64,000 nt of DNA from contig JBNJGB010000023.1 in the NCBI GenBank assembly GCA_051747385.1, forward strand, positions 16,720 to 80,719, read 5' to 3'. The position numbers and the translations under genes were made by a program. Shown here in pieces: positions 23,502 to 46,077 of this stretch. A model generated the notes under the pieces. That model was not told where the DNA came from and searched no databases. It saw nothing but the letters and a program-made list of their open reading frames with translations. The DNA is from Myxococcota bacterium. Lineage in GTDB: Bacteria; Myxococcota_A; UBA9042; PHBI01; JACKFB01. Position 1 is the first letter of the stretch. Every line of letters begins with the position of its first letter.

Positions 23502-23691
23502 GGCGGGCAAGCTAGCACGCGGATCCCGGGTCGTCGACAAAGATCCCCCAGCAATTCCGGGCCTCCGGGTGCGCTTGACACCCCCCAGACCCCGTGTTAG
23601 CGACCAGCGCCCCCAAAATGGGGAAAGCCCCGCATCGCGGGGGCTAGAACGCATTCCACACACGGCCACACACACCGAAAGGAGGGGGAGC

Positions 23692-25095: not shown

Positions 25096-25135
25096 GGGCC
25101 CGGTGATCGCTCAGGTCGCCGGGCCCTTTCTCGTT
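25096..25135 (+). terminator. rho-independent terminator after the barrel gene
   Basis: GGGCCCGG (25096-25103) and CCGGGCCC (25119-25126), with a 15-nt loop, followed by TTTCTCGTT. Confidence 0.6.
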
Positions 25136-25319
25136 CAGGCCTCGGCCTCCTGCCTCCACGCCGGGCCTGTGGTGGCCGGATTCGAGATGGCGAGCGATAC
25201 TGGGACGGTTCCGACACACCCATCGTGCGACAGACCCACGCCGAGCTCACGCACGGGGTCCGCCCCGAGCGCCACGGGGAGGTGGCGGAGGAGGGCTCGG
25301 AGCCTCCGGGGGGAGTGCC

Positions 25320-28004: not shown

Positions 28005-28071
28005 CGATCTCCGCCCCGGCCCTTTCCCGCGGTCACCCCGTCCGCTAGGTTCGTCTCAATCGGAGGACAAT

Positions 28072-30155: not shown

Positions 30156-31468
30156 CCGCCGAGCGCCTCCTGTACCGCGCCCTGCCGCTGGCGCTCCTGC
30201 TGCTCGCGCTGGGATTGCTGCGCGCCAGCGATCTGATCGCCGACCCGGGCGGCACTCGGGGCACGGCCGTGGCCCTCGGCTTCCTCCTGGTGGCGTCGTT
30301 CGTGGCCGGCAAGGTCGCCGTGCGCTTCGGGCTGCCGCGCATCACCGGGTATCTCCTGGCCGGGCTGCTCCTGGGCCCGGCCGTGAGCCACCTCCTGACC
30401 GCGGAGATGCTGGCCGGCCGGAAGGTGGTGGGGGGTATCGCCGTGGCCCTCATCGCCCTGACCGCTGGCGGAGAGCTGAAGCTGCCCTGGCTGAAGCGCA
30501 GCCTCCGGAGCGTCTCCGCCATCGCCGTCGTGGAGCTGATGGCCGTGCTCCTGGGCCTGTGGGCCGCCATCCAGGGCCTGCAGCACGCGGTGGGCATCTT
30601 CCCGCCGAACCTGCTCCCGGAGGGCGGCGACGCCATGGGCCTGGTGGCCCTGGTCCTTGCTGCCATCGCGGTCGCCAACTCGCCCGCCGTGGCCATCGCC
30701 GTCATCAACGACAGCCGCGCCGACGGGCCCGTCGCCCGCACGGTGCTCGGCGTCACGATCCTCAAGGACCTCCTGGTGGTCGTCCTCTTCGCGGTGGTGA
30801 TGTCCTTCGCCCGCCACCAGCTCGGCGAGGGCGCCGGCGAGTCCCTGGCGGTGGTCCTGTCGCGGGAGCTGCTGGGCTCCGTCGCCCTGGGCCTCGTGGC
30901 GGGCTGGATCGTGGTCTGGTACCTGCGGCACGTGGGTCGCGAGCTCCCGGTCTTCGTCCTCGTGGTCTGCTTCGCCCTCTACCAGCTCTCTTCGATCCTG
31001 CACCTGGAGCTCATCCTGGCCGCCGTGGCGGCGGGCTTCTACGTGGAGAACTTCTCCGACGGCCTGGGGCACCGGCTGGTGGAGGCCCTGGAGCGCGTCT
31101 CCCTGCCCGTCTACGCGTTGTTCTTCGCCGGCGCCGGCACCAAGGTGGACCTGGGCGTCCTGGCCACCCTGTGGCTGCCCGCCGTGCTCCTGGTGCTGAC
31201 GCGCGCCCTGACGATCTTCGTCGGCACCTGGCTGGGCGCGCGCATGTCGGGGGCCGGGCCGACGGTGCGCCGCTGGGCCTGGACGGGCTTCGTCAGCCAG
31301 GCCGGGGTGTCCCTGGCCCTCGCGGCCATCGTCGCGCGGACGTTCCCCGGCTGGGGCGAGCAGCTCGAGATCCTCCTCATCGCCCTGGTGGCCATCCACG
31401 AGCTGGTGGGCCCGCCGCTGTTCCTCTTCGCCCTCCGCCGCTCCGGCGAGGTGGACAAGCGGGAGTGA
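30152..31468 (+). CDS. cation:proton antiporter (CPA-type, Kef/NhaP-like membrane domain, no RCK/KTN domain)
   Basis: ATG 30152 overlaps the upstream stop (ATGA). VAGKVAVRFGLPRITGYLLAGLLLGPAVSHLL...ALIALTAGGELKL is typical of the Na_H_exchanger family. 438 aa, fully membrane-embedded. Confidence 0.8.
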   Translation: MTAERLLYRALPLALLLLALGLLRASDLIADPGGTRGTAVALGFLLVASFVAGKVAVRFGLPRITGYLLAGLLLGPAVSHLLTAEMLAGRKVVGGIAVALIALTAGGELKLPWLKRSLRSVSAIAVVELMAVLLGLWAAIQGLQHAVGIFPPNLLPEGGDAMGLVALVLAAIAVANSPAVAIAVINDSRADGPVARTVLGVTILKDLLVVVLFAVVMSFARHQLGEGAGESLAVVLSRELLGSVALGLVAGWIVVWYLRHVGRELPVFVLVVCFALYQLSSILHLELILAAVAAGFYVENFSDGLGHRLVEALERVSLPVYALFFAGAGTKVDLGVLATLWLPAVLLVLTRALTIFVGTWLGARMSGAGPTVRRWAWTGFVSQAGVSLALAAIVARTFPGWGEQLEILLIALVAIHELVGPPLFLFALRRSGEVDKRE

Positions 31469-31524
31469 GGCCACGCTCGGGGCCGCCTGTCGATTCCACA
31501 CGAGTCCCGTCGATGCTCCGCCAC

Positions 31525-31658
31525 GTGGCCGTGGTCGCCGGTCGCCGGTCGCCGGTCGTGGCCGTGGTCGCCGGTCGCCGGTCGTGGCCGTGGCCGTCGT
31601 CGTGGCCGTGGTCGTGGCCGTGGCCGTGGCCGTGGTCCTGGTCGCCGGTCGTGGTCGA
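31525..31658. repeat. compound hexanucleotide microsatellite (GTGGCC / GTGGTC / GCCGGT units)
   Basis: gtggccgtggtcgccggtcgccggtcgccggtcgtggccgtggtcgccggtcgccggtcgtggccgtggccgtcgtcgtggccgtggtcgtggccgtggccgtggccgtggtcctggtcgccggtcgtggtc. It lies in the 560-bp gap between the antiporter gene and the lipoprotein cluster. Confidence 0.85.
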
Positions 31659-32030
31659 GACCGGTCGTTCGGCCCGGTGCCATCGCGTCGGAGCCGTCGG
31701 GGCCGGCGCTCGGCTCAAGGCCCATCGCACCTCGGCCGCGGGTGGCCCACCCCCACCCACCCTCCTGTGACGAGGCCGGGCCGGATCGTTGCGCGCAAAG
31801 TGGCGCCGTCCCGCAACCGCGCGGCGTTGAGGTCTCGTGCTCGCCGGCCGGGCTCCCTCCCGCCTCCGAGCGGCGTCTGCGATCGGCCTCCCGGCGGCGT
31901 CCACGCGGGAAGTCGGGCCCCCGGCGTCCGGTTTGACTCCAACGGACCCATCACGGAAACTCGGCTGGGTTGGAATCTCCTTGAAATCGTTGGTCGACCG
32001 CGGGTCGGCGGCGATGCTGCGGGACGAACG

Positions 32031-34106
32031 ATGCGGACGAATCCCAGCCCCCACGTGCTCCTGTACACCCTGGCCGCGGTCCTGCTCGCGACCGCCGTGG
32101 TCCTCGGCGGCTGCTCGGAGGACGGCGGCGACGGTGATACGGCCGACGCTGGCGACGTGTCCTCCGGGGACGTGGAGGAGGACCTCCAGCCGGGCCAGGT
32201 CTGCAAGCCGGGCACGGCCCGCGAGTGCATCGTCGAGGGCGGCAAGCAGGCCGTCATCTGCAACGCCTCGGGCACGGCGTGGGTCGAGGGCATCTGCAAG
32301 GGACCCGACGGCCGCGACAGCAAGTGCGTCGACGGGTCCTGCACCGCCTGCTTCCCGGGCACCATGAAGTGCGACGGCGAGGACAAGGTGCTCCGGTGCT
32401 CCGACGACGGCTCCGAGTGGGAACTCCACCAGGAGTGCAAGGGCGGCACCACCGGCCAGGTGTGCGCCCTGGACCTCACGGGGAACACGTGCGAGAGCCT
32501 CTGCTCCATCAACATCAAGTTCAACAGCTACATCGGCTGCGACTACTGGGGCGTCGACCTGGACAACGCCTTCGTCCCGGGCGGTCGCGGCTACTACGAC
32601 GCCGCCAACGCCCAGTACGCCATCGCCGTCGGGAACCCGCCCGACTCGCCGCTGCCAGCCATCGTCGAGGTCTGGTACCTCGAGGACGGGGTCGCCCAGA
32701 AGGTCCCCAAGCACTACGGGCCGGGCCAGGATCCGGCGAAGGAGGACCCGGCGGAGCCCGTCCCCACGGAGCCGCTCATGCCGGGCGACCTCCGTGTGTT
32801 CCGCCTGCCGCCGCGCAACGTGGAGGGGACGGTCCAGGCGCCCCTGGCCTATCGGATCACCGCGTCCGTGCCGATCTTCGCCTACCAGTTCAACCCGCTC
32901 GAGAACGAGCAGGTCTTCTCCAACGACGCGAGCCTGCTCCTGCCCGCCACCCTGATGGGCAAGGAGTACATCGTGATGACGCGCGAGCAGACCTTCGACA
33001 CCCTGCGGAGCTACCTCACGGTGGTGGCTGTCCTGCCTGGCACGACCACGGTGAGCGTCGACGTGAGCGGCTCCACGCTGTCCGGGGCGATCGACTCGGC
33101 GTCGGGCGAGACGGGGGATATCCCGCACATGGAGCCCGGGACCACGAAGGTCTTCAAGCTCGAGCAGTACGACGTCCTGAACATCGAGACGGACCGGCCC
33201 GGCGAGGACATGACCGGCTCGCGGATCCTGGCGGACAAGCGCGTGGCGGTCTTCGGAGGCTCGGAGGCCTCCAACGCGCCCAACACGGCCCGCTGCATCG
33301 TCGACGAGGACTCGGTGACGGGCGGCGGCGTCTGCGAGTTCGACGGCGAGACCAGCTGCGAGACGCTGATGGACTGCGTGGAAGCCGGCTTCAACACCTG
33401 CTGTGCCGACCACCTAGAGCAGCAGCTCTTCCCGCTGAAGACCTGGGGCACGAGCTACGTGGCCACCAAGAGCTGGGATCGGGGCGAGGAGTCCGACATC
33501 TGGCGCCTCATGGCCGGCGCGGACAACACGAAGGTGGTCCTGGTGCCGCCGCTGACCACGCCCGACGGCGAGAGCATCAAGGTGCCGGTCCTGAACAAGG
33601 GCGAGTGGTTCGAGTTCGAGAGCCGCAAGGACTTCGAGGTCCACTCGGTGGACGGCAAGCCCATCCTCCTGGGCCAGTTCCTCGCCGCGCAGGACGCCCC
33701 GGATCCCAACGTGGCGGGCACCTCGAACACGGGGGACGCCGGGACCGGCGACCCGGCCTTCATGCTCTCCGTGCCCGTGGAGCAGTACCGGCGCGATCTG
33801 GTGGTCTACACGCCCGCCGAGTACCAGGACAGCTACCTGAACATCACCACGGAGACGGGGGCGCAGGTTACGCTCGACGGCGAGCAGATCCCCCCCGGGT
33901 TCTTCGAGGTCATCGGCTCGGGCGACTACAGTGTCCATCGAACCCGCGTCGAGCCCGGCCCCCACACGATCTCCTCCAGCGAGCCCGCCGGGGTGATCGT
34001 CTACGGATACGACCAGTACGTCTCCTACGCCTACACCGGGGGCCTCAGCCTCGAGGAGCTGAACAAGGAGGACCCGTTCACCGGGCCCGCCGTCGAGGAC
34101 GAGTGA
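32031..34106 (+). CDS. lipoprotein with Cys-rich N-terminal region and IgGFc_binding-like domain
   Basis: The track ORF starts at 31584. I prefer ATG 32031: MRTNPSPHVLLYTLAAVLLATAVVLGGCSEDGGDGD (lipobox). The body fits the IgGFc-binding N-terminal domain pattern as I remember it: ...ASLLLPATLMGKEYIVMT..., TGDPAFMLSVPVEQY, YLNITTETGAQVTLDGEQIP, GPHTISSSEPAGVIVYGYDQYVSYAYTGG. Confidence 0.75.
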   Translation: MRTNPSPHVLLYTLAAVLLATAVVLGGCSEDGGDGDTADAGDVSSGDVEEDLQPGQVCKPGTARECIVEGGKQAVICNASGTAWVEGICKGPDGRDSKCVDGSCTACFPGTMKCDGEDKVLRCSDDGSEWELHQECKGGTTGQVCALDLTGNTCESLCSINIKFNSYIGCDYWGVDLDNAFVPGGRGYYDAANAQYAIAVGNPPDSPLPAIVEVWYLEDGVAQKVPKHYGPGQDPAKEDPAEPVPTEPLMPGDLRVFRLPPRNVEGTVQAPLAYRITASVPIFAYQFNPLENEQVFSNDASLLLPATLMGKEYIVMTREQTFDTLRSYLTVVAVLPGTTTVSVDVSGSTLSGAIDSASGETGDIPHMEPGTTKVFKLEQYDVLNIETDRPGEDMTGSRILADKRVAVFGGSEASNAPNTARCIVDEDSVTGGGVCEFDGETSCETLMDCVEAGFNTCCADHLEQQLFPLKTWGTSYVATKSWDRGEESDIWRLMAGADNTKVVLVPPLTTPDGESIKVPVLNKGEWFEFESRKDFEVHSVDGKPILLGQFLAAQDAPDPNVAGTSNTGDAGTGDPAFMLSVPVEQYRRDLVVYTPAEYQDSYLNITTETGAQVTLDGEQIPPGFFEVIGSGDYSVHRTRVEPGPHTISSSEPAGVIVYGYDQYVSYAYTGGLSLEELNKEDPFTGPAVEDE

Positions 34107-34109
34107 GGA

Positions 34110-34272
34110 GACTCCTGTGAAGAAACTCCGGTCCGGCCCACGCCGACGATCCGACGGCGCTGTGGCGTGCCGCAGCTCCTTGAATTGGCGCTACCAGTCC
34201 TGCGTCGTTTCGTCCCACCACAGCTTGCGCCTCGGCGCCGTGGAATCGAACCTCCACTCCTTCCCAGGAGTC
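34110..34272 (+). repeat. copy A of a 163-bp MITE-like intergenic repeat with 8-bp terminal inverted repeats
   Basis: It starts GACTCCTG and ends CAGGAGTC. It aligns without gaps to 46082-46244, with 13 mismatches in 163 nt by my hand alignment. It fills most of the 183-bp gap between two cluster genes. Confidence 0.85.
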
Positions 34273-34289
34273 TAAGGACCAGGTCCCCC

Positions 34290-37200
34290 ATGCACCACGC
34301 CGCCATCGCCCACCGCCTGCTCCTCGTGGTCGCCACGTCGGCGCTGCTCGCCATCGCCGCCTGCAGCGACGACTCGGGCGGGTCCGGCGCGACGCCGGGC
34401 GGGGATGTGCAGGCACCCGACGTGGCGCCGGACACCCGGGGCGACGTCTCCGGGACTCCCGACACCGCGGAGCCGGACGCGAGCCCGGACGACGCGGACG
34501 GCGGGGAGGCCGGGGGCGACGCGGAGGTCGACGGTGAACCGGCGGCGGCGGGCCTCGGCGTGGAATCGGTGGTGCCGGAGCGCGGCCTGGCCAGGGGCGG
34601 CGAGCAGGTCGAGATCCTCGGGCAGGGCTTCGGAGACGGCCTGCAGGTCTTCTTCGGCGAGAGCCTGGCCCAGGACGCCTGGGCGCTGAACGAGGATCGC
34701 ATCGTCGCCGTCACGCCGCCCCGGACGCCCGGGGTGGTGGACGTGCGGGTCGTGGAGCCCGGGAGCGGCGCCGAGGCGGTCCTGGACGACGGCTTCCGCT
34801 TCTACAACCCCGTGGCCGTCGACGCCGTGGACCCGCCCGACGGCCACGTCCTGGGCGGAGACCCCGTGACCGTCACCGGGAGCGGCTTCGTGGCGGGCTC
34901 CCACGTCCTCATCGGGGGACGCGCGGCCCTGGAGGTGGAGATCCTCGACGACGGGACCCTCCTGGCGGTGACTCCCGACGCCCCGGCGGCAGGCCCCGCG
35001 GACGTCCACGTCTCCAACACGGTGGGCGTGGGGCGCCTCGACGACGGCTTCACCTACTTCGACTCGCCGCGGGTGGACGCCGTCGTGCCCCCCGCCGGGC
35101 CCATGGAGGGCGGCACCCCGGTCGACGTGAAGGGGCGCGGCTTCGCGGAGCCCATGGTGGTGACCGTGGCCGGCGCGCCCCTGGAGGACGTGGAGGTCCT
35201 GGACGGCGGGCGCCTCACCGGGCTGGTGCCGGCGGCGGACGTGCCCGGACCGGCCGACGTGAACGTGGCGACGGAGTACGGGACCGCGACGGCCCGGGAT
35301 GCGTACACCTACCTGGAGGACACGGCGCCCGGCGAGGAGGTCGACGTCCTGGCGGTCACCCCGGCGAGCGGCCCGGCCCTGGGCGGCGACGCGGTGACCG
35401 TGGTGGCGAAGGGCCTCACCGTCCGGCAGGACACGACCGTCACCTTCGGGGACGCGGCGGCGGTGGTGAAGGGCGTGGACTCCGCGGCCCACACCGCGCT
35501 GGTGCAGGTCCCGGCCGCGGAGCCCGGCACGGTGGACGTCACGCTCACGAACGCGAACGGCGCCGACACCCTGGCCGGGGGCTACACCTACGAGCCCTAC
35601 GTGCGGGTCTGGGAGGTCCTTCCCAACTACGGGCCCGTGGAGGGCGGCACGCCCGTGACCGTCTCCGGGGAGGGCTTCGAGCCCGGCCTGCAGCTTCGCA
35701 TCGGGGCGCTGCCGGCGGCCGACTTGCAGGTGGTGGACGAGGGCACCGTGACGGCCACGACGCCGCCCGGAAGCCCCGGCCTGGCGAACGTCACCGTGCT
35801 CCAGGGCGGGCTGAAGGACACGCTGGTGGGCGGGTTCTCCTACCAGGCCGAGATGGACCTCTGGGTGGTGGAGCCTCCCCACGGCAGCCAGGCCGGCGGG
35901 ACCTTCGTCACGCTGGCGGGGAGCGGCTTCCCGTCCGACGCGGACGTGCGGGTGGGCGGGACGCCGGCCACCCACGTCATCGTCGAGTCGCCCACGCGGA
36001 TCACCGCCCGGACCCCGCCGGGGGACGTGGGCACCGTGGACGTGAGCGTCGAGTCGCCCACGCGCGGCACCGTGACCCTGCCCCGGTCGTTCACCTACTT
36101 CGACCCGGAGAGCCAGTTCGGCGGCACCTGGGGCGAGGGCGTGGACGGCGCCGTGAACGTGACGGTCCTGAGCGGCCAGGACGGCTCGCCCATCCCGGAC
36201 GCCTTCGTGATGCTGTGGACGGACCCGGCGACGCCCTACCAGGGCTACACGAACCTGGAAGGGCAGATCACCTTCAGCGGCCCGGACGTCGGCGGCGAGC
36301 AGATGGTCTCGGCGTCCAAGGAGGGCTTCGCCTCGTCGTCGGTGGTGGAGTACGACGCCTCGAACATCACCCTGTACCTCAGCCCGAGCGCGTCAGGGTC
36401 CGGTCCGCCGCCCACGCCGCCCCCGGCGCCCACCTTCCACGGGCAGGTGGTGAACGCCACGAAGTACGTCCCGGTGCCCTGGGGCAAGTGCGGACAGAAG
36501 ACCGACGCGCCGGGGACGCTGTGCCAGCCCTGCACGGAGGACGCGGACTGCGAGGGGCTCGCCTGCTCCGACCTGCCGGACCAGGGAAGCTACTGCACCT
36601 CCCACTGCGGGACGGACGACGACTGCCCGGACGGCTTCATGTGCCATCCGGTCAACGGGCAGCCCGAGCACCAGTGCATCCCGGCCACGGGGCGGGTCAC
36701 GGCCTTCTGCGACTTCACGAAGCCGACCATCTTCAGCCAGGACGCCATCCCGCAGCCCGGCCAGGAGGTGCTCCCGGACTTCAGCTTCGAGATGACCGTG
36801 CCCATCGGCGAGTCCGCCGTGTTCTGCTGGGGCGGCATCTACAACGAGGACACGGACGAGTTCACGCCGTACGTCCTGGGCCTGAAGCGCCACGTCTTCG
36901 CCCAGCCCGGCCAGCAGCTCGAGGGCGACGTGGTCCTGAGCCACCCGCTGAACGGGACCATGGACATCCGGCTGGACGACCCGCCCAACAACCCGAACGG
37001 CCCCGACTTCAACACCGCGCTGGTCCACCTGGACCTGGGCAGCGACGGCACGCTGGAGTTCCTGCACCACCCCGTGGACGTCGAGGACACGCTGAAGATG
37101 AAGTGGATCCCGAAGACCCTGAGCGGGAACCTCTACGACGCCAGCTATACGATCCTGGCGGGCGCCTTCAGCTTCGGGGCGGACAACCTCCCCTACTCGG

Positions 37201-38435
37201 TGACGTTCCACCAGGGCATCCGCGAGCTCCGGGACGACGTGTTCTGGGAGTGGGGGACGGCCGGCTGGGAGCCCGACTCGACGGGGATCTCCCAGAACGT
37301 GAACGATCTCTTCGCCCTGGACGCGGAGACGATCTTCGGCGTCGGCACCGACGGCCTGCTCATCCGCAGCGTGGGCCAGGCCTGGGCCGCCCAGGACAAT
37401 CCCCTGAAGGATCACTTCGAGGGCGTGCACGCGGTGTCGGCCGGCGACGCCCTCGCCGTGGGCCAGAACGGGGCGGTCGTGCACTGGGACGGGCTGGCCT
37501 GGACCCCCGAGGAGACGCCCACCACCTCCCACCTGCGCGACGTCTGGATGGCCGACGCCGACGAGGCCTTCGCCGTGGGCTCCTACGTGGTGCTCCACCG
37601 GGAGGACGGGGCCTGGACGCAGATGTCGGGCAACACCAACAAGAACCTCCGGGACGTGTGGGGTTTCGCGGCGGACGACGTGTGGGCCGTGGGCAACTAC
37701 GGCAACGTCATCCACTGGGACGGCGCCTCCTGGAGCACCGTCCAGACCGGGACCACACAGAACTTCCGCGGCGTGTGGGGGCCGAGCCCGGACGACGTCT
37801 TCGTCGTGGGCGAGGCGGGCACCGTCCTCCGCTGGGACGGCGAGGCCCTGAGCCCCATGGAGGTCGACACGACGGAGACCCTGAACGCGGTCTGGGGCAC
37901 CGGGCCCGACGACGTGTACGCCGTCGGCGATCGGGGGATGCTCTTCCGCTGGGACGGCGCCCAGTGGATGGACGAGAGCCCGCCGGGCGAGACCAACGAC
38001 TTCCTGGCCGTGGCCGGTGGCGAGGGCCGCGTGGTGGTCACCGGCACCCACGAGCTCCTCCTGGGGCCGCTCCTCGAGGTGCCGGAGGACATCCAGCCGG
38101 CCGCCGGCGGCACCATGGGCGAGGAGTACGAGATCTCCTGGACCGTGAAGCCGGGCGTCGACCCGCACTTCAGCTACGTGCAGGTGGCCGTGCCGGGTAT
38201 GACCGGCCCGGTGCCCGAGTGGACCATCGTCAACGACTGGGACGTCACGAGCGTGCTCCTGCCCGACTTCCCCAACATCGAGGGGACCCCGGGCATCGCG
38301 CCGGGGGCCAAGATCCTGACGATCATCCGCGTGTACGAGGAGGGGTTCGACATCGACAACTACTCGAACCAGGATCTGAACACCCTCCGCTGGCAGTCCT
38401 GGGCCCAGGACCAGCACACGTTCACCAAGGAGTAG
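34290..38435 (+). CDS. giant lipoprotein: acidic linker, 6x IPT/TIG, CarboxypepD_reg-like domain, Cys-rich module, C-terminal multi-blade beta-propeller
   Basis: ATG 34290: MHHAAIAHRLLLVVATSALLAIAACSDD (lipobox). Six ~85-aa repeats of the form V..V.P..G...GG..V.I.G.GF......V..GG........V.....L....P....G.VDV.V. Then NVTVLSGQDGSPIPDAFVMLW...GYTNLEGQITF and CQPCTEDADCEGLACSD...CTSHCGTDDDCPDGFMC. C-terminal blades look like LRDVWGFAADDVWAVGNYGNVIHWDGASW. Confidence 0.8.
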   Translation: MHHAAIAHRLLLVVATSALLAIAACSDDSGGSGATPGGDVQAPDVAPDTRGDVSGTPDTAEPDASPDDADGGEAGGDAEVDGEPAAAGLGVESVVPERGLARGGEQVEILGQGFGDGLQVFFGESLAQDAWALNEDRIVAVTPPRTPGVVDVRVVEPGSGAEAVLDDGFRFYNPVAVDAVDPPDGHVLGGDPVTVTGSGFVAGSHVLIGGRAALEVEILDDGTLLAVTPDAPAAGPADVHVSNTVGVGRLDDGFTYFDSPRVDAVVPPAGPMEGGTPVDVKGRGFAEPMVVTVAGAPLEDVEVLDGGRLTGLVPAADVPGPADVNVATEYGTATARDAYTYLEDTAPGEEVDVLAVTPASGPALGGDAVTVVAKGLTVRQDTTVTFGDAAAVVKGVDSAAHTALVQVPAAEPGTVDVTLTNANGADTLAGGYTYEPYVRVWEVLPNYGPVEGGTPVTVSGEGFEPGLQLRIGALPAADLQVVDEGTVTATTPPGSPGLANVTVLQGGLKDTLVGGFSYQAEMDLWVVEPPHGSQAGGTFVTLAGSGFPSDADVRVGGTPATHVIVESPTRITARTPPGDVGTVDVSVESPTRGTVTLPRSFTYFDPESQFGGTWGEGVDGAVNVTVLSGQDGSPIPDAFVMLWTDPATPYQGYTNLEGQITFSGPDVGGEQMVSASKEGFASSSVVEYDASNITLYLSPSASGSGPPPTPPPAPTFHGQVVNATKYVPVPWGKCGQKTDAPGTLCQPCTEDADCEGLACSDLPDQGSYCTSHCGTDDDCPDGFMCHPVNGQPEHQCIPATGRVTAFCDFTKPTIFSQDAIPQPGQEVLPDFSFEMTVPIGESAVFCWGGIYNEDTDEFTPYVLGLKRHVFAQPGQQLEGDVVLSHPLNGTMDIRLDDPPNNPNGPDFNTALVHLDLGSDGTLEFLHHPVDVEDTLKMKWIPKTLSGNLYDASYTILAGAFSFGADNLPYSVTFHQGIRELRDDVFWEWGTAGWEPDSTGISQNVNDLFALDAETIFGVGTDGLLIRSVGQAWAAQDNPLKDHFEGVHAVSAGDALAVGQNGAVVHWDGLAWTPEETPTTSHLRDVWMADADEAFAVGSYVVLHREDGAWTQMSGNTNKNLRDVWGFAADDVWAVGNYGNVIHWDGASWSTVQTGTTQNFRGVWGPSPDDVFVVGEAGTVLRWDGEALSPMEVDTTETLNAVWGTGPDDVYAVGDRGMLFRWDGAQWMDESPPGETNDFLAVAGGEGRVVVTGTHELLLGPLLEVPEDIQPAAGGTMGEEYEISWTVKPGVDPHFSYVQVAVPGMTGPVPEWTIVNDWDVTSVLLPDFPNIEGTPGIAPGAKILTIIRVYEEGFDIDNYSNQDLNTLRWQSWAQDQHTFTKE

Positions 38436-38519
38436 GCGGGAGCCGGTGACCGGGGCGGCGCTCCGCACGGCGGCCGGCGCGGAGCCCTCCGGATCCCGAC
38501 AGCGCGCGAAGGACACCGC

Positions 38520-40475
38520 ATGAGGCACTCGACGGGGCTCCGGATCCCCACCCTGGCGTTGGTCACGGTGCTGCTCGTCGCCTGCGACGACGGCGGCGGC
38601 GGCGGCGAGGAGGACACCGGCCCGACGGACGCGACGGAGGACACGACCCTCGACGTCGTGGAGGACTCCGGACCCGCCGACGTGGTGCCGGACGGTGCCG
38701 GCGACGCCGACGCGGCCGACGTCGAGACCGGGGACGCCGATGACGTCGTCGCGCCGCCTTCGCCCTGGACGATCCGCTCCCTGGGCGACCTCGGCACCCT
38801 CTCGGACGTCCACGTGGTCGGCCCCGACGAGGCCTACGCCGTCGGCGGGCCGCGCGTGCTGCGCTTCAACGGCGCCACCTGGGCGGCCTACGGCGAGCCC
38901 ACCGGGGACACGCTGTACGGCGTGTGGGCGGACGAGGGGATCGTCGTCGTCGTGGGCGCCGAGGGCCTGATCGCGCGCCGGACCCCTGCGGACCTGACCT
39001 GGACCGTCGAGGACGCCGGCGTCGGGGTGGACCTCCACGCCGTGGACGGCCGCGGCCCGGACGCGCTGTGGGCCGCCGGGGACGAGAGCACCATCCTGCG
39101 CTACGCGGGCCCCGACCCGGGCTGGGAGGTCGCCCACGACGGCGGCGGCGTCGGCCTGCGGGACCTGTGGGTGCCGCCGAGCGGCGACGGGGACGCCGGC
39201 GTCCTGGCCGTCGGCACGAAGGGCACGCTCTACCGCGTCCAGGGCGGCGAGTGGGTGACCCGGCAGATCGCGTCGAACACCGTGACCCTGCACGCGGTGC
39301 TCGGCGTGGGAGATCGGCGCGTCGCCGCGGGGACGGACACCACGCTCACGGTGAAGGCCGATCCCTCGCAGCCGTGGCAGGGACAGAGCGCCAACCTGGA
39401 CCAGGACCGGGACCTGTTCGCCCTCGCGGGCTCCGAGGCCGACGGGGTCTTCGCCTTCGGGGCGGCCGGCACCGTGCTGCGCTCCGAGGGCCAGGCGTGG
39501 TCCTCCGTGGACGTGGCCGGCCCCAGCGCCGCCAGCGCGGACCTGGTCGCCGCCGCGTGGCACCGCGCCGAGGGCGACGGCGATCCGACCTTCCTCGTGA
39601 TGGGCGCGGAGGGCGGAGGCCTGGTCCTCGACGACGAGGAGTGGGTCGACATGCCCACCCGGCCCCGCGGGGGCCTCGCCGCGTTGGACGGTGCCGACCG
39701 CGACGGCCTCTGGGCCGCCGGTCCCGACGGGCTGGTCATGGCCTCCACGGCGCAGGGGTGGACCGCGGTCCCGGTCCCCACGGAGGTGGACCTGGCGGAC
39801 GTGGCGGCCGGTCCCGACGGGATCGTGTGGGTCGTGGGCGACGACGGCGTCGTCCTCCGCCGGGCCCCCGGTGAGGCGTTCGAGGTGCTGCCCCAGGTCG
39901 TGCCCGCGGCCCTGTCCTCCGTGGCCTCGGACGGCGATCGCGTGGTCGCGGGCGGGAAGGGAGGCACGGTGCTCCGCGGTCCCGTGGACGGGAGCGAGCC
40001 CCTGGCCGCGTGGCCGGTGGACGTCCAGGCGGGCATCCGCGCCGTGGGCGTGGGCGGAGACGGCGCGTGGTGGCTGGCCGGGGACTTCGGCACCCTGCTC
40101 CGCTCCGCGGACGGGGAGGCCGTCGACGCGATCCCCAGCGGCGTGGCCGGCACCCTGCACGACCTGGCGGCCGCGGACGGCGGCGTGCTCGTGGCGGGCG
40201 ACAACGGGGTGCTCCTGGAGGTGGAGGGCGGAGACGAGCCCGAGGCCGAGCAGGTGTACGAGGACCCCGGCCTGTTCCTCTTCGGCGTGGACGTGCTCGG
40301 CGAGGCCGCCCTGGCGGTCGGCTGGAACGGCGGGGTCGTCCGCCGCACGGAGGACGGCTTCGCGCCGGAGGACAGCGGCACCCGCGCGGTGCTCGAGGCC
40401 GTGTGGATCGACGGGGACGGGGCCCTGGCCGTGGGCAGGCTGGGAGCCCTCCTCGAGCGGACGGAGGCTCCATGA
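38520..40475 (+). CDS. lipoprotein, acidic linker plus multi-blade beta-propeller (paralogue of next gene)
   Basis: MRHSTGLRIPTLALVTVLLVACDDGGGGGEED (lipobox). Repeated ~45-50 aa blades, e.g. LSDVHVVGPDEAYAVGGPRVLRFNGATW, LYGVWADEGIVVVVGAEGLIARR, LHAVDGRGPDALWAAGDESTILRY. Confidence 0.75.
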   Translation: MRHSTGLRIPTLALVTVLLVACDDGGGGGEEDTGPTDATEDTTLDVVEDSGPADVVPDGAGDADAADVETGDADDVVAPPSPWTIRSLGDLGTLSDVHVVGPDEAYAVGGPRVLRFNGATWAAYGEPTGDTLYGVWADEGIVVVVGAEGLIARRTPADLTWTVEDAGVGVDLHAVDGRGPDALWAAGDESTILRYAGPDPGWEVAHDGGGVGLRDLWVPPSGDGDAGVLAVGTKGTLYRVQGGEWVTRQIASNTVTLHAVLGVGDRRVAAGTDTTLTVKADPSQPWQGQSANLDQDRDLFALAGSEADGVFAFGAAGTVLRSEGQAWSSVDVAGPSAASADLVAAAWHRAEGDGDPTFLVMGAEGGGLVLDDEEWVDMPTRPRGGLAALDGADRDGLWAAGPDGLVMASTAQGWTAVPVPTEVDLADVAAGPDGIVWVVGDDGVVLRRAPGEAFEVLPQVVPAALSSVASDGDRVVAGGKGGTVLRGPVDGSEPLAAWPVDVQAGIRAVGVGGDGAWWLAGDFGTLLRSADGEAVDAIPSGVAGTLHDLAAADGGVLVAGDNGVLLEVEGGDEPEAEQVYEDPGLFLFGVDVLGEAALAVGWNGGVVRRTEDGFAPEDSGTRAVLEAVWIDGDGALAVGRLGALLERTEAP

Positions 40476-42454
40476 GGCGCGCGGCGTGGCTCATGGCGGC
40501 AGCGGGCCTGCTGGTCGCCTGCGGGGACGGCGGCGGGGACGGATCGCCGGGCGCGGACACGGTCGGGACGGACATCCACGAGGACGCCGCGGACGTCGCG
40601 CCGGACGCGCCGGAAGACGTCCCGGACGACACCGACGTCTCGGACGGTGCGGACACCGCGGACCTCGGGCCGGACGTGTCCCCGGCCGACGCCGACGCGG
40701 CGGGCGACGCCGACGCGACGACGCGGGTGCTGGTCCAGGAGAAGACCGGCCTGGGCAAGGACTTCGTCTTCAAGGGCGTGTGGGCCGGCGAGGCCGGGCG
40801 CGCCGTGGCCGTGGGCAACGACGGGGTCGTGGTGGGCCGGGATCCGGACGGGGCGTGGCAGGTCCTCCAGGAGGGAGAGACCGCCGACCTCCTCAACGCC
40901 GTCACGGGGACCTCGGCCGGGGACCTGTGGGCCGTCGGGAAGGGCGGCACCGTTTTGCGCGGCGGCGTGGGCGACCTGAAGTGCCTGGAGGAGGCCTGCG
41001 GACCCGACGGCGCGCTCCCCACCCTGTTCGGCGCGTGGGCCGCGGCCCCGGACGACCTCTGGGCGGTGGGCCTGCAGGGGACCATCGTCCACCACGACGG
41101 CGAGGTCGGGGAGGCGGCGTCCGGCCCCGACGTGACGGTCCGCTGGCACGGGATGCACGGCCTGGCGGAGGGAGAGGCCGTGCTCGTGGGCACCGAGGGG
41201 CGCCTGGCGCGCTTCGTGGACGGGGCGCTGATCTCTGAGGAGACGCCGACCCAGGTCACGCTCCGGAGCGTCGCCTCGGCCGGCGGGGGCCTCTGGTGGG
41301 CGGTCGGCGACGCCGGGACCCTCCTGCGCGGCGAGGGCGGCGTCTGGACGCCGGTCCCGGTCTCCACGGCCGCGAACCTCCACGACGTCCACGCCGTGTC
41401 GCCCTTCGACGCGTACGCCGTGGGCGATGGCGGGATCGTCCTGCACTGGGACGGGGACCTGTGGACGCCCGTGGTGGACCTGCCGGCCGGCGTGGCGGGC
41501 ACCGACCTCCGCGCCGTGTACGTGGACGCCGAGGGCGAGGCCGTGATCACCGGCGACGGGGGCGCGACCATCCAGGGCACGGCCTCCGGCGGCTTCGACC
41601 TCGTCGGCGACCTCGCCCCGGAGGGGATGCTCACGGCGGCGTGGGGCGGCGGCGGGATCGTGGTCCTCGCCGGAGACCACTCGACCGTCTTCGTGCACCA
41701 GGACGGCGAGTGGACCGAGCAGGCGGTCCCCACCACCCAGCACATCCGAGGGGTCTGGGGCAGCGCGGCCGACGACGTCTGGGCCGTGGGCCTGGCGGGC
41801 CTCATCCTCCACTACGACGGCGAGGAGTGGATCAAGCTGGATCCGCCGTCTGGCGAGGCGATGGAGACCGTCTGGGGCAGCGCGGCCGACGACGTCTGGG
41901 CCGCCGGCGCCGACGGGACCGTCTTCCACTGGGACGGCGTGATGTGGCGGTCGGCGATCAGCCAGACGAGCAAGGCCCTCCGCGCGGTGTTCGTCTTCCC
42001 GGAGGGCCAGGGCTTCGCGGTCGGTAGCGACGGCACCATCATGCAGGGCGGCGGCCTCGCCTGGCGGCAGGTCGAGATCGAACCTCTGGAGACGCCGGAC
42101 GGCGAGGAGGTGCCCGTCACCGACCCCCTCCACGGCGTCTGGGGCGCCTCGCCCGATGACGTGTGGGCCGTGGGAGGCTCCGGCCGGATCGTCCACTGGG
42201 ACGGCGAGGCCTGGACCTCGAAGGACCCGGGCTTCGGCATCACGCTGCGGGCCGTGTGGGGCACCGCCGCGGACGACGTCTGGGCCGTGGGCGGCCAGGG
42301 CCACGTCCTCCACTACGACGGCGAGGTCTGGACCCCCCGGGAGTCCAACTCCGTGGCGACGCTGTACGCCGTCCACGGGGACGGCGGCGACCACGTGGTG
42401 ATCGTGGGCGACCTCGGCACGGTCCTCCGGGTCGTCGAGGAGACGCCCCGCTGA
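40472..42454 (+). CDS. lipoprotein, acidic linker plus multi-blade beta-propeller
   Basis: ATG 40472 overlaps the upstream stop (ATGA). MRRAAWLMAAAGLLVACGDGGGDG (lipobox). Very regular blades: IRGVWGSAADDVWAVGLAGLILHYDGEEW, METVWGSAADDVWAAGADGTVFHWDGVMW, LHGVWGASPDDVWAVGGSGRIVHWDGEAW, LRAVWGTAADDVWAVGGQGHVLHYDGEVW. Confidence 0.78.
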   Translation: MRRAAWLMAAAGLLVACGDGGGDGSPGADTVGTDIHEDAADVAPDAPEDVPDDTDVSDGADTADLGPDVSPADADAAGDADATTRVLVQEKTGLGKDFVFKGVWAGEAGRAVAVGNDGVVVGRDPDGAWQVLQEGETADLLNAVTGTSAGDLWAVGKGGTVLRGGVGDLKCLEEACGPDGALPTLFGAWAAAPDDLWAVGLQGTIVHHDGEVGEAASGPDVTVRWHGMHGLAEGEAVLVGTEGRLARFVDGALISEETPTQVTLRSVASAGGGLWWAVGDAGTLLRGEGGVWTPVPVSTAANLHDVHAVSPFDAYAVGDGGIVLHWDGDLWTPVVDLPAGVAGTDLRAVYVDAEGEAVITGDGGATIQGTASGGFDLVGDLAPEGMLTAAWGGGGIVVLAGDHSTVFVHQDGEWTEQAVPTTQHIRGVWGSAADDVWAVGLAGLILHYDGEEWIKLDPPSGEAMETVWGSAADDVWAAGADGTVFHWDGVMWRSAISQTSKALRAVFVFPEGQGFAVGSDGTIMQGGGLAWRQVEIEPLETPDGEEVPVTDPLHGVWGASPDDVWAVGGSGRIVHWDGEAWTSKDPGFGITLRAVWGTAADDVWAVGGQGHVLHYDGEVWTPRESNSVATLYAVHGDGGDHVVIVGDLGTVLRVVEETPR

Positions 42455-44139
42455 TGGACACGGGCTCGGAGGGACGCGCCGCACGCCTCCGGGACGCGGT
42501 CCGCGAGGGCCCCTCCGCCGGTCCCTGGAGGGCCCGGGACGGCCTCCTCCTGGGCGCCGTCATATGCGTCGCCGCCGCCGTGCGCCTCCCGCGTCTGAGC
42601 GAGGGCCTGTGGATCGACGAGGTGATCTCGCTGGACACGGCCGCCGAGTCCCTGGGCCGGCTCCTGGCGCGGACGGGCTTCGGGGACGTCCACCCCCCGG
42701 GCTGGTACCTGCTCCTGAGCGCCTGGACGAGCCTGATCGGCGACGGCGACGTCGTCGCGCGGACGCTCCCCCTCCTGCTCGGGCTGGCGACGGTGGCCCT
42801 CCTGTTCTCCTGGGCGCGCCGTCGCCTGGGAAGCTGGCCGGCGACGCTCGCCGCGGGCTGGCTCGCCCTGTCCACCTTCCACGCCCACTACTCCGTGGAG
42901 GTGCGCTCCTACGCCCTGCTGGCCCTCGCCGCGCTGGCCCTGCCGGCGGCCTGCGAGCGGTGGCTGGAGGCCCCGGCCCGTCGCGGCCGGCTCGCCTGGA
43001 CCCTGGGCCTGGAGGCCCTGCTGCTGTGGACCCACTACTTCGGCCTGCTGGTCGTGGCCCTGGTGAACCTCCACGTCTTCCTCGCCAGGCCCCGGGACCG
43101 GCGCGTCGTCGACCGCTGGGCCGCGGGACAGCTCGTGGTGCTGGCGGCCTTCGCGCCGTGGGCGCCTCTCCTGATCGTGCAGACCTTCGAGCTTCCCGAG
43201 GCCGTCACCGGCCACCTCCGCGGGAGCCTGCCGGCCGGGGAGGTCCTCGCGGCCCTGGGGCCCGCGACCGCCGTCCCGGTCGCCTGGCTCGCCGCGGCGG
43301 CCGGCGTGGCGACCCTCGCCCTGGCCGCCGCGGGTCTCCGGAGGGTCCCGTCCGAGGCTCCCGCCCCCTCCGACGCCCTGGCGGAGCGACGAGGCCTGCT
43401 GGCGGCCGGCCTCGCGGGTATCCTGCTGCTCCCGCCGATCGGCCTGGCCCTGCTGCCCCTGAGCGACACGACCTTCGACCTGCTGGCCGGGGCGATCCCC
43501 CGCGCCTATGCCCTCCTTGGGGCCGGCGCCGCCGCGGTCGGGCTGGGCGTCCTCCTCCAGCGCCGCCGCGTGGGCCTCCTCCGCTGGTCCGTGGCGTCGT
43601 GGGTGGTGCTGGGTGCCCCCGTCCTGGTGGCGGCGCTCGCGCTGGCGCGGGAGGTGCTGCTGGTCCGGAACCTGCTCCCGTTCCTGGCCCCGCTGCTCCT
43701 CGTGGCCGCCGCCGCTGTCCCCCGCCGGCTCCCGGTGATGGCCGGCGTGTTGGCGGTCGTCGCCGCCCTGGCCGTTCCGTCGCTGCTCCGCGCCCCCGAG
43801 GCGTTCCAGCCGCGCCAGGACCTCCGCGGGGTGGCCGCCGCTATCGCGGAGCGACCGGAGGCGCCCGTCTGGGTCCTCCCGCCCTGGGACGCTCCCGGCC
43901 TGGAGCGCTATCTGCCGGCGGAGCAGGCGCCGCGCACCGCCATGGAGCCCTCGGATCTGCCGACCGCCGATCGGCTCCCGGCAGCAGTCGATGTAGTTCT
44001 CGCCCGGTCGGCGGCAGAACCGGACGACCCCGTCCGGGATCGGGTCGTCGAGCGCCTGGTCCCGCCCTTCGAAATCGTTGAAGAGCATGCCTTCCGCGGG
44101 GTCTCCGGCGGCCTGCGCCTCCTCCGCTTCAGCCGCTGA
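42454..44139 (+). CDS. GT-C fold glycosyltransferase-like membrane protein (family 39 / PMT_2-like)
   Basis: ATG 42454 shares one base with the upstream TGA (TGATG). AVICVAAAVRLPRLSEGLWIDEVISLD has the acidic DE motif in the first loop. FGDVHPPGWYLLLSAW and ~10 further TM helices follow, then a soluble ~130-aa C-terminus. Confidence 0.7.
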   Translation: MDTGSEGRAARLRDAVREGPSAGPWRARDGLLLGAVICVAAAVRLPRLSEGLWIDEVISLDTAAESLGRLLARTGFGDVHPPGWYLLLSAWTSLIGDGDVVARTLPLLLGLATVALLFSWARRRLGSWPATLAAGWLALSTFHAHYSVEVRSYALLALAALALPAACERWLEAPARRGRLAWTLGLEALLLWTHYFGLLVVALVNLHVFLARPRDRRVVDRWAAGQLVVLAAFAPWAPLLIVQTFELPEAVTGHLRGSLPAGEVLAALGPATAVPVAWLAAAAGVATLALAAAGLRRVPSEAPAPSDALAERRGLLAAGLAGILLLPPIGLALLPLSDTTFDLLAGAIPRAYALLGAGAAAVGLGVLLQRRRVGLLRWSVASWVVLGAPVLVAALALAREVLLVRNLLPFLAPLLLVAAAAVPRRLPVMAGVLAVVAALAVPSLLRAPEAFQPRQDLRGVAAAIAERPEAPVWVLPPWDAPGLERYLPAEQAPRTAMEPSDLPTADRLPAAVDVVLARSAAEPDDPVRDRVVERLVPPFEIVEEHAFRGVSGGLRLLRFSR

Positions 44140-44851
44140 TACGCCGCCGTACGGCCAGGGCCAGGAGCAGGAGGACGGCGCCCCACACCGGGGCCCCGCG
44201 CGTGGCCGCGCAGCCGTCCTCGGCCGGCGGAGCGCCCGCCGGGGAGCCCGCCACGCCGCCCCGCTCCACGGACGGGGTCGGCCCGGCGGCGACGCTCGAC
44301 GGTCCGGCGTCCGGCGCGAACCCGGCATCCGGTACCGGGCCTGCGTCGGCGCCACGGGCGGGGCCTGCGTCCCCGGCGCTCGGCACCCCGGCGTCCGAGG
44401 GGGGGCCCGCGTCGGAGTCCTGGGCGGCGTCGGCCTCCTCCGCGTGGGCGGTCGTCATCGGCAGGCAGTCGTAGGCCTCGAGGCCGTCGTCCCAGCCGCA
44501 GACCGCGTCCTCGCCGCAGTCCGCGGTGCGGACGCGCCCCTCGCCGTCGCACCAGACCACGTGGTTGGCGGCGGTGCAGCGGCCCTCGCGCGGGATGTCG
44601 GCGCAGTCCGTGGCCTCGATGGCGACGCAGCCGTAGCCGCCGTCGAAGGCGTCGTGCTGCGTGCACAGCTCCCCGGGTGGGCAGGTGGCGGTCTTCAGCT
44701 CTCCGTCGGCGCACCAGACCAGGGTCCGGCCGTCGACGCACTGGCCGTCCGGGTCGACCTGGCCGCACGTCTCCGCGCGGGCGTCGGTCGCCGCGATCGA
44801 GGCGGCGACGGCCAGCCACACCACCAGCATTCGGGGGAAGCGCACGTCCAT
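44129..44851 (-). CDS. secreted Cys-rich protein with MYXO-CTERM-type C-terminal sorting signal
   Basis: Signal peptide MLVVWLAVAASIAATDARA. Two similar Cys-rich modules (CGQVDPDGQCVDGRTLVWCADGELKTATC / CADIPREGRCTAANHVVWCDGEGRVRTADC). A P/A/G/D linker. Tail: DGCAATRGAPVWGAVLLLLALAVRRR (Cys, TM, basic cluster). The 3' end overlaps the convergent GT-C gene by 11 nt. Confidence 0.75.
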   Translation of the reverse strand: MDVRFPRMLVVWLAVAASIAATDARAETCGQVDPDGQCVDGRTLVWCADGELKTATCPPGELCTQHDAFDGGYGCVAIEATDCADIPREGRCTAANHVVWCDGEGRVRTADCGEDAVCGWDDGLEAYDCLPMTTAHAEEADAAQDSDAGPPSDAGVPSAGDAGPARGADAGPVPDAGFAPDAGPSSVAAGPTPSVERGGVAGSPAGAPPAEDGCAATRGAPVWGAVLLLLALAVRRRISG

Positions 44852-44907
44852 CGCCGGAAGTCTAGCGACGCCGTCGAAGCCGGATCAAAGGAATCCGACG
44901 CGCTGCG

Positions 44908-46077
44908 TCACGCGTTCATGGAGCAGAACGCCTCGTAGTCCACCAGCTCCGTGATCGTGGGCTGTTCGCTGCAGACGGGGCAGCTCGGATCCCGGCGCGT
45001 CTTCAGCTCGCGCACGCTCATCCGGAGGGCGTCGATGGACAGGATCCGGCCCGAGAGCAGGTCGCCCGCGCCCAAGAGGAGTTTGACCACCTCGGCGGCC
45101 TGCAGGGTCCCCACGATGCCGCAGATGGCGCCCAGGACGCCCGCCTCGGCGCAGCTCGGGGCGAGCTCCGGCGGGGGCGGCTCCGGGTACAGGCAGCGAT
45201 AGCACGGCCCGCCGTCCGGGGCGTTGAAGGTCGTGACCTGCCCGTCGAAGTGGAAGATGGAGCCGTGGACGTTGGGGATGCCCAGGAAGACGCACGCGTC
45301 GTTGATGAGATAGCGCGTCGGGAAGTTGTCGGTGCCGTCGACGACCACGTCCCACCCCTCGAAGATCTCGAGGGCGTTCGAGGAGTCCAGCCGCGTGTCG
45401 TAGGCGACCACCTCGATGTCGCTGTTGAGGCGCTTCAGGGTCTCCCGGGCGGACTCGACCTTCGGATCTCCGGCGCGCTCCTCCGTGTGGATGATCTGGC
45501 GCTGGAGGTTGGAGGTGTCCACGCGGTCGTTGTCGATGATGCCCAGGGTCCCCACGCCGGCCGCCGCCAGGTACAGGGCCGTCGGTGAGCCCAGCCCGCC
45601 GGCGCCCACGCAGAGCACGCGGGCGTCCAGGAGCGTCTGCTGCCCTTCCTCCCCCATCTGCGGGAGGATGATCTGCCGGGCGTAGCGCGCCTTCTGCTCG
45701 GTGCTGAGGGTCTTGCGATGCTCCAGGTCGTACCCGGCGCGGCTCCAGGCGCCGACGCCGCCCAGGATGTTCACCACGTCCCGATAGCCCATCTCCTCCA
45801 GGGACTTTGCGCTCAGGGCGCTGCGGAAGCCGCCGGCGCAGTACAGCGCGATGGGGCGATCCCGATCGGGCACCATGGCCTCGATCTTCTGCTCCAGCAG
45901 GCCGCGCGGGACGATCACGGCGCCGGGGATGACGCCGTTCATCGTCTCGTCCGGCTCGCGGATGTCGATGAGCACCGGACGCGGGTTCGCGTCGAGTCGC
46001 TCCTTCAGGTCCTGGACGGAGATCTCCCGGATCTGCGCCTTGGTCCTCGCGAGGATGTCCTCAAAGGTCGGGGCCAT
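44908..46077 (-). CDS. moeB: rhodanese-ThiF/MoeB fusion (sulfur-carrier adenylyltransferase with N-terminal rhodanese domain)
   Basis: N-terminal rhodanese: PVLIDIREPDE...PIALYCAGGFRSALSAKSL. E1-like domain: RYARQIILPQMGEEGQQTLLDARVLCVGAGGLGSPTALYLAAAGVGTLGIIDNDRVDTSNLQRQ. Cys pairs CYRC...C and CPVC. The symbol is tentative; this could equally be a ThiF/MoeZ-type enzyme. Confidence 0.8.
   Translation of the reverse strand: MAPTFEDILARTKAQIREISVQDLKERLDANPRPVLIDIREPDETMNGVIPGAVIVPRGLLEQKIEAMVPDRDRPIALYCAGGFRSALSAKSLEEMGYRDVVNILGGVGAWSRAGYDLEHRKTLSTEQKARYARQIILPQMGEEGQQTLLDARVLCVGAGGLGSPTALYLAAAGVGTLGIIDNDRVDTSNLQRQIIHTEERAGDPKVESARETLKRLNSDIEVVAYDTRLDSSNALEIFEGWDVVVDGTDNFPTRYLINDACVFLGIPNVHGSIFHFDGQVTTFNAPDGGPCYRCLYPEPPPPELAPSCAEAGVLGAICGIVGTLQAAEVVKLLLGAGDLLSGRILSIDALRMSVRELKTRRDPSCPVCSEQPTITELVDYEAFCSMNA

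Follow-up and report, generated by a model that had tools for sequence, protein, structure and literature searches.

Four acidic-tethered lipoproteins encoded in a conserved operon of uncultured Myxococcota, with a GT-C glycosyltransferase gene added in one clade

The DNA analyzed here (the window) is a 64,000 nucleotide (nt) stretch of contig JBNJGB010000023.1 (positions 16,720 to 80,719) from the Myxococcota bacterium assembly GCA_051747385.1, and our subject is a cluster of lipoprotein genes near its center. The window is about 72% G+C, and third-position G+C marks five successive plus-strand genes between positions 32031 and 44139. An earlier reading made from the sequence alone (the initial annotation) had described five co-directional genes here, and their translations confirm it. 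We call them g1 through g5, and they are as follows (aa, amino acids):

32031-34106, plus strand: g1, 691 aa, IgGFc_binding lipoprotein
34290-38435, plus strand: g2, 1381 aa, lipoprotein with six TIG domains and a propeller
38520-40475, plus strand: g3, 651 aa, degenerate propeller lipoprotein
40472-42454, plus strand: g4, 660 aa, propeller lipoprotein
42454-44139, plus strand: g5, 561 aa, polytopic PMT_2-class GT-C glycosyltransferase

The g3 stop and g4 start codons share the ATGA at 40472-40475 and the g4 stop and g5 start codons share the TGATG at 42452-42456; both junctions are identical in sequence to those claimed previously. Translation of g2 most likely begins at the ATG at 34290, which has AAGGA before it, and the GTG at 34167 is a less likely start. 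The junctions in related genomes (loci numbered L001 upward) are likewise tight, with a 1-nt overlap and a 3-nt gap in L085 and an overlap and a 3-nt gap in L001. Co-direction, short or overlapping junctions, an order that is kept among relatives and a shared promoter (below) all indicate, at the level of sequence, that the g1-g5 locus is a real operon.

The first four genes encode predicted lipoproteins. Their signal peptides end in the lipoboxes LGGC (g1, Cys28), IAAC (g2), LVAC (g3) and LVAC (g4) and are followed by acidic linkers, so that all four of the lipobox-and-linker arrangements listed in the initial annotation are present. When a signal peptide ending in [LVI][ASTVI][GAS]C is taken as the criterion for processing by signal peptidase II, g1 through g4 are all classed as lipoproteins, and 85 of 120 g1-family and 62 of 69 g4-family proteins likewise have one. 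The linkers that follow are ~20-80 residues long, contain 25-37% Asp plus Glu and only ~0-4% Lys plus Arg, and occur family-wide; in the window the tether of g1 is short, and those of g2, g3 and g4 are ~70-80, ~60 and ~65 aa long, respectively.

The product of g1 had been assigned an IgGFc_binding domain, and profile comparison places that domain well above the Pfam gathering threshold: residues 299-659 match PF17517 over the whole model (positions 1-297 of 297) with 215.8 bits against a threshold of 25.6 (E = 1.1e-63). The N-terminal region of g1 is Cys-rich, with 13 conserved Cys, loops at residues 179-192, 290-298, 408-418 and 457-465 are invariant, and the AlphaFold2 (AF2) model of g1 is all-beta with a predicted local distance difference test (pLDDT) score of 73.6. 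A Foldseek search of this model against the PDB returned TM-scores of only ~0.1 and no meaningful fold match, a search of PDB sequences with a g1 profile gave no match, and among the viral models of BFVD the one real match was to an uncharacterised phaeovirus protein. The N-terminal domain of animal FCGBP resembles g1 in matching the full-length PF17517 model, but g1, unlike it, is a lipoprotein, has at its N-terminus a Cys-rich region of its own and lacks VWD repeats. We know of no established function for the IgGFc_binding domain in bacteria. Full-length g1 homologues with 60-72% identity are present in many Myxococcota metagenome-assembled genomes (MAGs). The g1 proteins of the window and L003 are 70% identical, compared with 75% for ThiF, 68% for FtsE and 62% for the M23 peptidase, and g1 is thus constrained at about the level of the neighbouring housekeeping genes. 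Many g1 paralogues stand alone, in contexts that have nothing to do with the module (L083 and L039-L082, for example). The neighbours of g1 paralogues (families F2-F22) were considered as possible functional partners and set aside as uninformative; they are kinases, PlsX, SmpB, a CoA-transferase and other unrelated housekeeping or generic proteins. There can be at least three g1 paralogues in one genome, as in the MAG that contains L012, L043 and L078 and in another that contains L038, L058 and L077; in each of these two MAGs just one IgGFc_binding paralogue adjoins a TIG/propeller module, and the others have unrelated surroundings, in some cases genes for Cys-rich repeat lipoproteins or Ser/Thr kinases.

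The g2 protein is the largest of the four, and from its N-terminus it consists of the tether, six IPT/TIG domains, a sub-threshold CarboxypepD_reg-like domain, a Cys-rich segment, a propeller of about seven blades (residues ~990-1260) and a C-terminal domain. The six TIG domains that had been called previously exceed the Pfam threshold (PF01833; six stretches, 200.6 bits against a gathering value of 20.9, E = 3.1e-60), and the CarboxypepD_reg domain expected along with them does not (PF13620; residues ~622-685, 27.1 bits against 32.3, E = 5e-6), its fold being nonetheless plausible. The protein also matches the NCBIfam choice-of-anchor Z repeat (CoaZ_rpt_PGGG, a surface-protein repeat) with 99 bits against a cut-off of 30, and its propeller region is 35% identical to g4 (E = 2e-35). 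Plexin/Met-type ectodomains, which contain a Sema propeller, a Cys-rich PSI domain and IPT/TIG domains, likewise join TIG repeats, a Cys-rich segment and a propeller in one polypeptide; however, the order is reversed in g2 (TIG first) and there is no Sema or PSI family match, so the resemblance is architectural only.

One blade motif had been proposed to be common to the three downstream lipoproteins. The motif is strong in g4, with two strict and seven relaxed matches, and clear in g2 residues ~990-1260, but in g3 it is degenerate, with two relaxed matches; g3 is only 27-30% identical to g2 and g4 (E = 1e-7 to 1e-9). The AF2 model of g4 (35 homologues) has a mean pLDDT of 86.7, residues 1-81 are disordered, and its 56 strands form 14 four-stranded blades. 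Its best Foldseek matches are tandem seven-bladed propellers, among them GH74 xyloglucanases (5jwz, 6p2o and 7kn8) and BT4663, with E values of ~1e-13. The earlier description of g3 and g4 as beta-propeller proteins therefore stands, but that of a single propeller does not, since the g4 model has 14 blades and matches two-propeller proteins. From the model and these matches the g4 blades would divide 7+7, and g3, by its length and homology, is probably also a tandem propeller.

Family assignments for these propellers are few. In Pfam and NCBIfam searches g3 fell below the cut-offs for both Ycf48/PSII_BNR (PF14870; 15.8 bits against 27) and F510_1955 (26 bits against 175), g2 and g3 scored ~20 bits against a cut-off of 326 for NF010237, and g4 had no family match, Ycf48/PSII_BNR included. 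Ycf48/HCF136, a seven-bladed propeller lipoprotein of cyanobacteria, shares with g2 and g3 the combination of lipoprotein and propeller as well as the weak PF14870 and NF010237 matches, but the g2 and g3 scores lie far under the cut-offs and the host has no photosynthetic context. The 14-bladed g4 model is matched in Foldseek by tandem-propeller glycan binders (GH74 enzymes and the periplasmic sensor domains of the Bacteroides hybrid two-component systems BT4663 and BT4673), but non-enzymatic tandem propellers match it just as well; identity of the glycan binders to g4 is only 11-15%, the TM-scores are ~0.2, and g4 has no glycoside hydrolase (GH) or Y_Y_Y family signature. Most g4 orthologues are 850-900 aa long and contain a Cys-rich/MAM-like insert of ~210-250 aa between blades 2 and 3. 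The g4 of the window is a short variant (660 aa) that lacks this insert and has only a short C...C remnant at residues ~165-185, where model confidence is lower. Elsewhere in Myxococcota g4-type propellers form part of Ser/Thr kinases and of proteins with Big, EGF and CarboxypepD_reg domains; they are a general extracellular module of this phylum.

Are these four genes inherited as a unit? An alignment scan with g1, using one genome per GTDB species, found 590 relatives, and the best 80 of these were examined; all are MAGs, many on short contigs, and gene order was read by tblastn and clustering of the locus genes. The order g1-g2-g3-g4 on one strand was found in L001, L004, L005, L008-L013, L017, L018, L026, L029, L036 and L038, so that at least 15 further species-level MAGs of uncultured Myxococcota have the full module; the L006 contig ends inside g3. 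The close relatives L002, L003 and L049 have g1-g2-g4 without g3. A g1 gene followed by a TIG protein gene occurs at ~35 distinct loci (38 locus numbers, three of which are duplicate contigs), down to ~35% g1 identity, and the complete g1-g2-g3-g4 order with its tight junctions is kept down to 39% g1 identity. In the clade closest to the window the module adjoins ftsE, ftsX and an M23 peptidase gene and lies near dnaA, rnpA and yidC, and in L085 it lies between hisHF/poly(A) polymerase genes and the gene for HU, as it does in L010. Since the flanks differ among lineages, g1-g2-g3-g4 is the conserved unit. The synteny that the initial annotation had envisaged for all five genes thus holds for g1-g4, which recur in at least 15 genomes with different flanks, but not for the GT-C gene, which is not a core member. 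In seven loci of a different sub-lineage (L011, L012, L013, L017, L018, L026 and L036) the position after g4 that g5 has in the window is taken by a fifth lipoprotein, which has a lipobox, an acidic linker and a length of at least 330-400 aa. Carriers of the module are marine, lake, groundwater and activated-sludge MAGs, all uncultured. The view that this is a dedicated extracytoplasmic lipoprotein cluster without a named pathway is supported, and the literature on PF17517 or IgGFc-binding in connection with Myxococcota, lipoproteins or the type IX secretion system yielded no description of it.

The fifth gene has a different history. The g5 protein matches PMT_2 (PF13231) at model positions 2-157 of 160 with 35.5 bits against a gathering threshold of 26.1, and hydropathy gives ~10-12 hydrophobic segments. 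Asp55 and Glu56 of its WIDEV sequence, just after the first transmembrane segment (TM1), are invariant in 40 of 40 homologues, and the nearest six family members share W53-I54-D55-E56-V57; its previous identification as a polytopic GT-C with an acidic first-loop motif is thereby upheld. No PF02366 (PMT) or MIR match was found at E <= 0.01, which excludes it from the PMT-proper domain class of GT39, and a g5 family profile had no match among PDB sequences at E <= 1. Like the PMT enzymes of Actinobacteria and fungi (GT39) and the PMT_2 group that includes ArnT (GT83), g5 passes PMT_2, is polytopic and has an invariant Asp-Glu after TM1, and like PMT systems it is encoded beside secreted proteins with long disordered linkers. 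It differs from both in having neither PF02366 nor MIR, in its own conserved C-terminal soluble domain, and in having no linked arn or lipid A genes. PMT_2-type GT-C enzymes use a polyprenyl-phosphate-sugar donor at the periplasmic face. The arrangement presumably follows the same logic as that of TfpW of P. aeruginosa group IV pili, a GT-C arabinosyltransferase whose gene lies next to that of its pilin substrate: a dedicated GT-C gene directly 3' of the gene for its extracytoplasmic substrate and transcribed together with it. The analogy serves only as a lead, and here lipoproteins rather than pilins would be modified.

A word-index search with g5 had given only distant partial matches, as would be expected of a one-off orphan insertion, and its top match, P0002, sits in an unrelated context. 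That idea was overturned by an exhaustive search, which found full-length relatives of g5. They form a small family with 28 representatives at E <= 1e-30, and the best match is 48% identical. Genomic context was taken from seven looked-up relatives and a metagenome scan, one further contig being too short to place. A g4 homologue, the GT-C gene and a convergent gene for a Cys-rich protein (below) follow one another on five other distinct contigs (L088, L091, L169, L174/L175 and L176), and where such a contig is long enough the genes for ThiF, a 357-aa unknown protein and MnmE come next, as in the window. The g4 to GT-C junction is a start overlap in L176 and a gap of 5-77 nt on the other contigs, and g5 identity among the six linked contigs (window included) is 35-48%. 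On the other hand, a search of the 86 g1-anchored loci with a family-specific profile turned up none with a relative of g5, and the gene is missing after g4 in 16 module loci with readable sequence there; for this reason the GT-C gene is regarded as accessory. In a neighbour-joining tree of the C-terminal 480 residues of g4, a single clade holds the window and the GT-C-positive L169 and L088 together with L002, L003 and L049; L002 and L003 have no GT-C gene, and the L049 contig ends at g4. This pattern suggests one gain of the GT-C gene and then one later loss, and from these gene-order comparisons it is a clade-restricted accessory gene that has been stably linked there over a long divergence.

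Upstream of g1 two further features were found:

31933-31961, plus strand: probable sigma-70-type promoter (-35 TTGACT at 31933-31938, 17-nt spacer, -10-like GAAACT at 31956-31961)
31524-31657: microsatellite, imperfect hexamer/heptamer (CGTGGT/GGTCGCC)n of ~21 copies, after the Na+/H+ exchanger gene and 5' of the promoter

The TTGACT had already been suggested as a -35 element, and comparison supports this: 14 of the 19 related module loci compared have an element of the form TTGAC[TCA]-N17/18-(GATCAT/TAnnnT) 5' of g1, as against 5 of 721 control windows. A generic scan for the sigma-70 consensus called no promoter upstream of g1, because the -10 is weak. The operon is probably driven by this housekeeping-type promoter, which implies a 5' untranslated region of ~60 nt. 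Most of the 562-bp upstream region, previously described as a repeat-containing leader, would then be untranscribed, and that description is better replaced by one of a spacer with the hexamer microsatellite at 31524-31657. The microsatellite was not seen in the aligned regions upstream of g1 in relatives. An Rfam scan of positions 30000-46000 gave nothing meaningful (one snoRNA match, E = 0.3), so the region is not a known riboswitch, and terminator-like sites occur at chance level only.

The gene that converges on g5 is as follows:

44129-44851, minus strand: Cys-rich secreted protein, 240 aa, with a MYXO-CTERM-like C-terminus (…DGCAATRGAPVWGAVLLLLALAVRRR); convergent with g5, the 3' ends overlapping by 11 nt

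This protein contains a long Pro/Ala/Gly/Ser/Asp-rich linker, and homologues of its gene are next after g4 in L002 and L003, whereas in L088, L091, L169, L174 and L176 they follow the GT-C gene. Beyond it in the window are the ThiF/rhodanese and MnmE genes, which like the flanking genes upstream are unrelated to the operon, and ~9 kb downstream of the operon is a type II/IV secretion ATPase gene (T2SSE with MshEN; 53155-54981, plus strand). On the other side of the operon, positions 25107-31468 encode a P-type cation ATPase, a ~470-aa unknown protein and a Na+/H+ exchanger, which lie between g1 and a gene at 23488-25068 (plus strand). The latter encodes a conserved signal-peptide protein of unknown family that ends in …AIKYDW; it is divergent from ftsE, and the product is probably an outer-membrane beta-barrel. 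Its homologue is directly 5' of g1 in the closest clade only. The 25107-31468 block looks like a lineage-specific insertion, the genes that flank it being adjacent in L001-L004, L008 and L049. Still further upstream, the M23 peptidase and FtsE genes are on the other strand.

The gene content, domains, gene order, promoter, tethers and clade-restricted GT-C linkage of the locus are all direct observations; what might such a set of proteins do? We tentatively read g1-g4, with a chance that we put slightly below even, as an extracytoplasmic assembly of tethered lipoproteins that probably lies at the cell surface and binds a ligand; in one clade it would, by way of the GT-C, probably be linked to glycosylation. 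A long, disordered and acidic tether would anchor each component to the membrane. The conserved core pair would be g1, with its Cys-rich region and beta domain, and g2, a six-TIG rod with a propeller head, and g3 and g4 would supply propeller modules of the type used extracellularly in Myxococcota Ser/Thr kinases. The size and tether of g2, its choice-of-anchor match and the kinase-sensor relatives of the propellers favour exposure outside the cell. The most likely role would be to bind a macromolecule or particle outside the cell (a glycan or the surface of another cell), and so adhesion or capture rather than catalysis. In one clade a GT-C gene would have joined the operon at its 3' end, and the most likely target of the enzyme is a component that belongs to the assembly or lies next to it.

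Several points weigh against such an assembly. Complex formation, surface as opposed to periplasmic location, the ligand and the GT-C substrate are all matters that we infer; g1 has no structural or functional analogue in the PDB and BFVD searches; and the propeller fold is generic, the glycan-binder matches of g4 being equalled by those of eukaryotic WD40 tandems, all at TM-scores of ~0.2. The plasticity of the module, which varies by lineage in the loss of g3, in the length of g4 (660 to ~900 aa) and in the optional fifth lipoprotein, fits a loose co-regulated set equally well. It is accordingly conceivable, though we think it unlikely, that g1-g4 are independent surface or periplasmic lipoproteins which share a conserved expression unit and form no defined complex, and the many solo g1 paralogues and the wide reuse of the propeller domain point the same way. 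Free-standing adhesins, however, are not usually conserved like housekeeping genes as g1 is, and independent proteins would not be expected to hold their order and tight junctions to 39% g1 identity across different flanks. A stronger form of the tethered assembly, in which g1-g4 would be a fixed-stoichiometry, vertically inherited cell-surface machine built around g1, specific to a large uncultured aquatic lineage of Myxococcota and used for contact with, or capture of, prey or particles, and in which one clade's dedicated GT-C would O-glycosylate the acidic tethers, is distinctly doubtful. If it were true, a Gram-negative phylum would possess PMT-like glycosylation directed at lipoproteins. 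In most lineages the module does without the GT-C gene, and the Ser/Thr content of the tethers is not enriched in GT-C-positive relative to GT-C-negative loci. Both facts are also in keeping with a GT-C that has no connection with the lipoproteins: its gene would simply be transcribed from the operon promoter, and the enzyme would act on a lipid, on a polysaccharide or on its MYXO-CTERM neighbour. We hold this possibility to be somewhat unlikely. Two close relatives of the GT-C with ~37-41% identity (L170, 2823-4514, and L172, 4283-6031) belong to a different conserved cluster, in the order SLT lytic transglycosylase with TPR, DUF2179, GT-C, NodU/CmcH-type carbamoyltransferase, a glycan-type context that raises the possibility of a non-protein (envelope) glycan substrate, and the Cys-rich MYXO-CTERM-like protein with its long linker is always the other neighbour of the GT-C gene. 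Yet the latter has kept its place right after g4, with overlapping or close starts, on six contigs whose g5 proteins are only 35-48% identical, and the MYXO-CTERM gene occurs without it in L002 and L003.

The same propeller matches and GT-C contexts could be taken to mean that the locus harvests or remodels glycans, with g3 and g4 as GH74-like hydrolases, g1 and g2 as carbohydrate-binding and spacer proteins, and the GT-C acting on the same polysaccharide. The Foldseek matches of g4 to GH74 enzymes and to the glycan-sensing BT4663, the weak g3 match to the F510_1955 glycosylhydrolase family, the CarboxypepD_reg-like domain of g2, the frequency of TIG domains in carbohydrate-active enzymes, and the GT-C relatives beside lytic transglycosylase and carbamoyltransferase genes would all fit. 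We nevertheless judge it improbable, as no GH family reaches threshold in g3 or g4, WD40 tandem propellers match g4 just as well, and in no locus is the module linked to genes for a transporter, a TonB-dependent receptor or sugar catabolism. The neighbourhood in the closest clade, where the module is beside ftsE, ftsX, the M23 gene and the probable beta-barrel gene and near dnaA, rnpA and yidC, raises instead a periplasmic accessory of the envelope or of cell division, tied to the FtsEX-M23 (EnvC-like) genes near the origin and with tethers that span the periplasm or peptidoglycan as in LpoA/LpoB. Housekeeping-level conservation of g1 and the length and disorder of the tethers agree with this, but FtsEX adjacency is limited to that one clade (L085 and L010 are elsewhere), three transporter-type genes part the module from the FtsEX block in the window, and g2, at 1381 aa with six TIG domains and a tether, seems large for the periplasm; we find such a role very improbable.

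All of the domains encoded here belong to known families, and their combination is an envelope lipoprotein operon with an optional dedicated GT-C. The operon brings no new principle; its immediate payoff is a well-defined target for structure prediction and for work in heterologous hosts. Because some sister lineages have the GT-C and others do not, they provide a natural comparison in which PMT_2-type glycosylation of Gram-negative lipoproteins or of their neighbours may be studied. Among gene sets without housekeeping functions, the module of four lipoproteins ranks with the better conserved in a widespread branch of uncultured Myxococcota, and constraint on g1 like that on division and cofactor genes suggests a central role in the envelope of these probably predatory or particle-associated bacteria.

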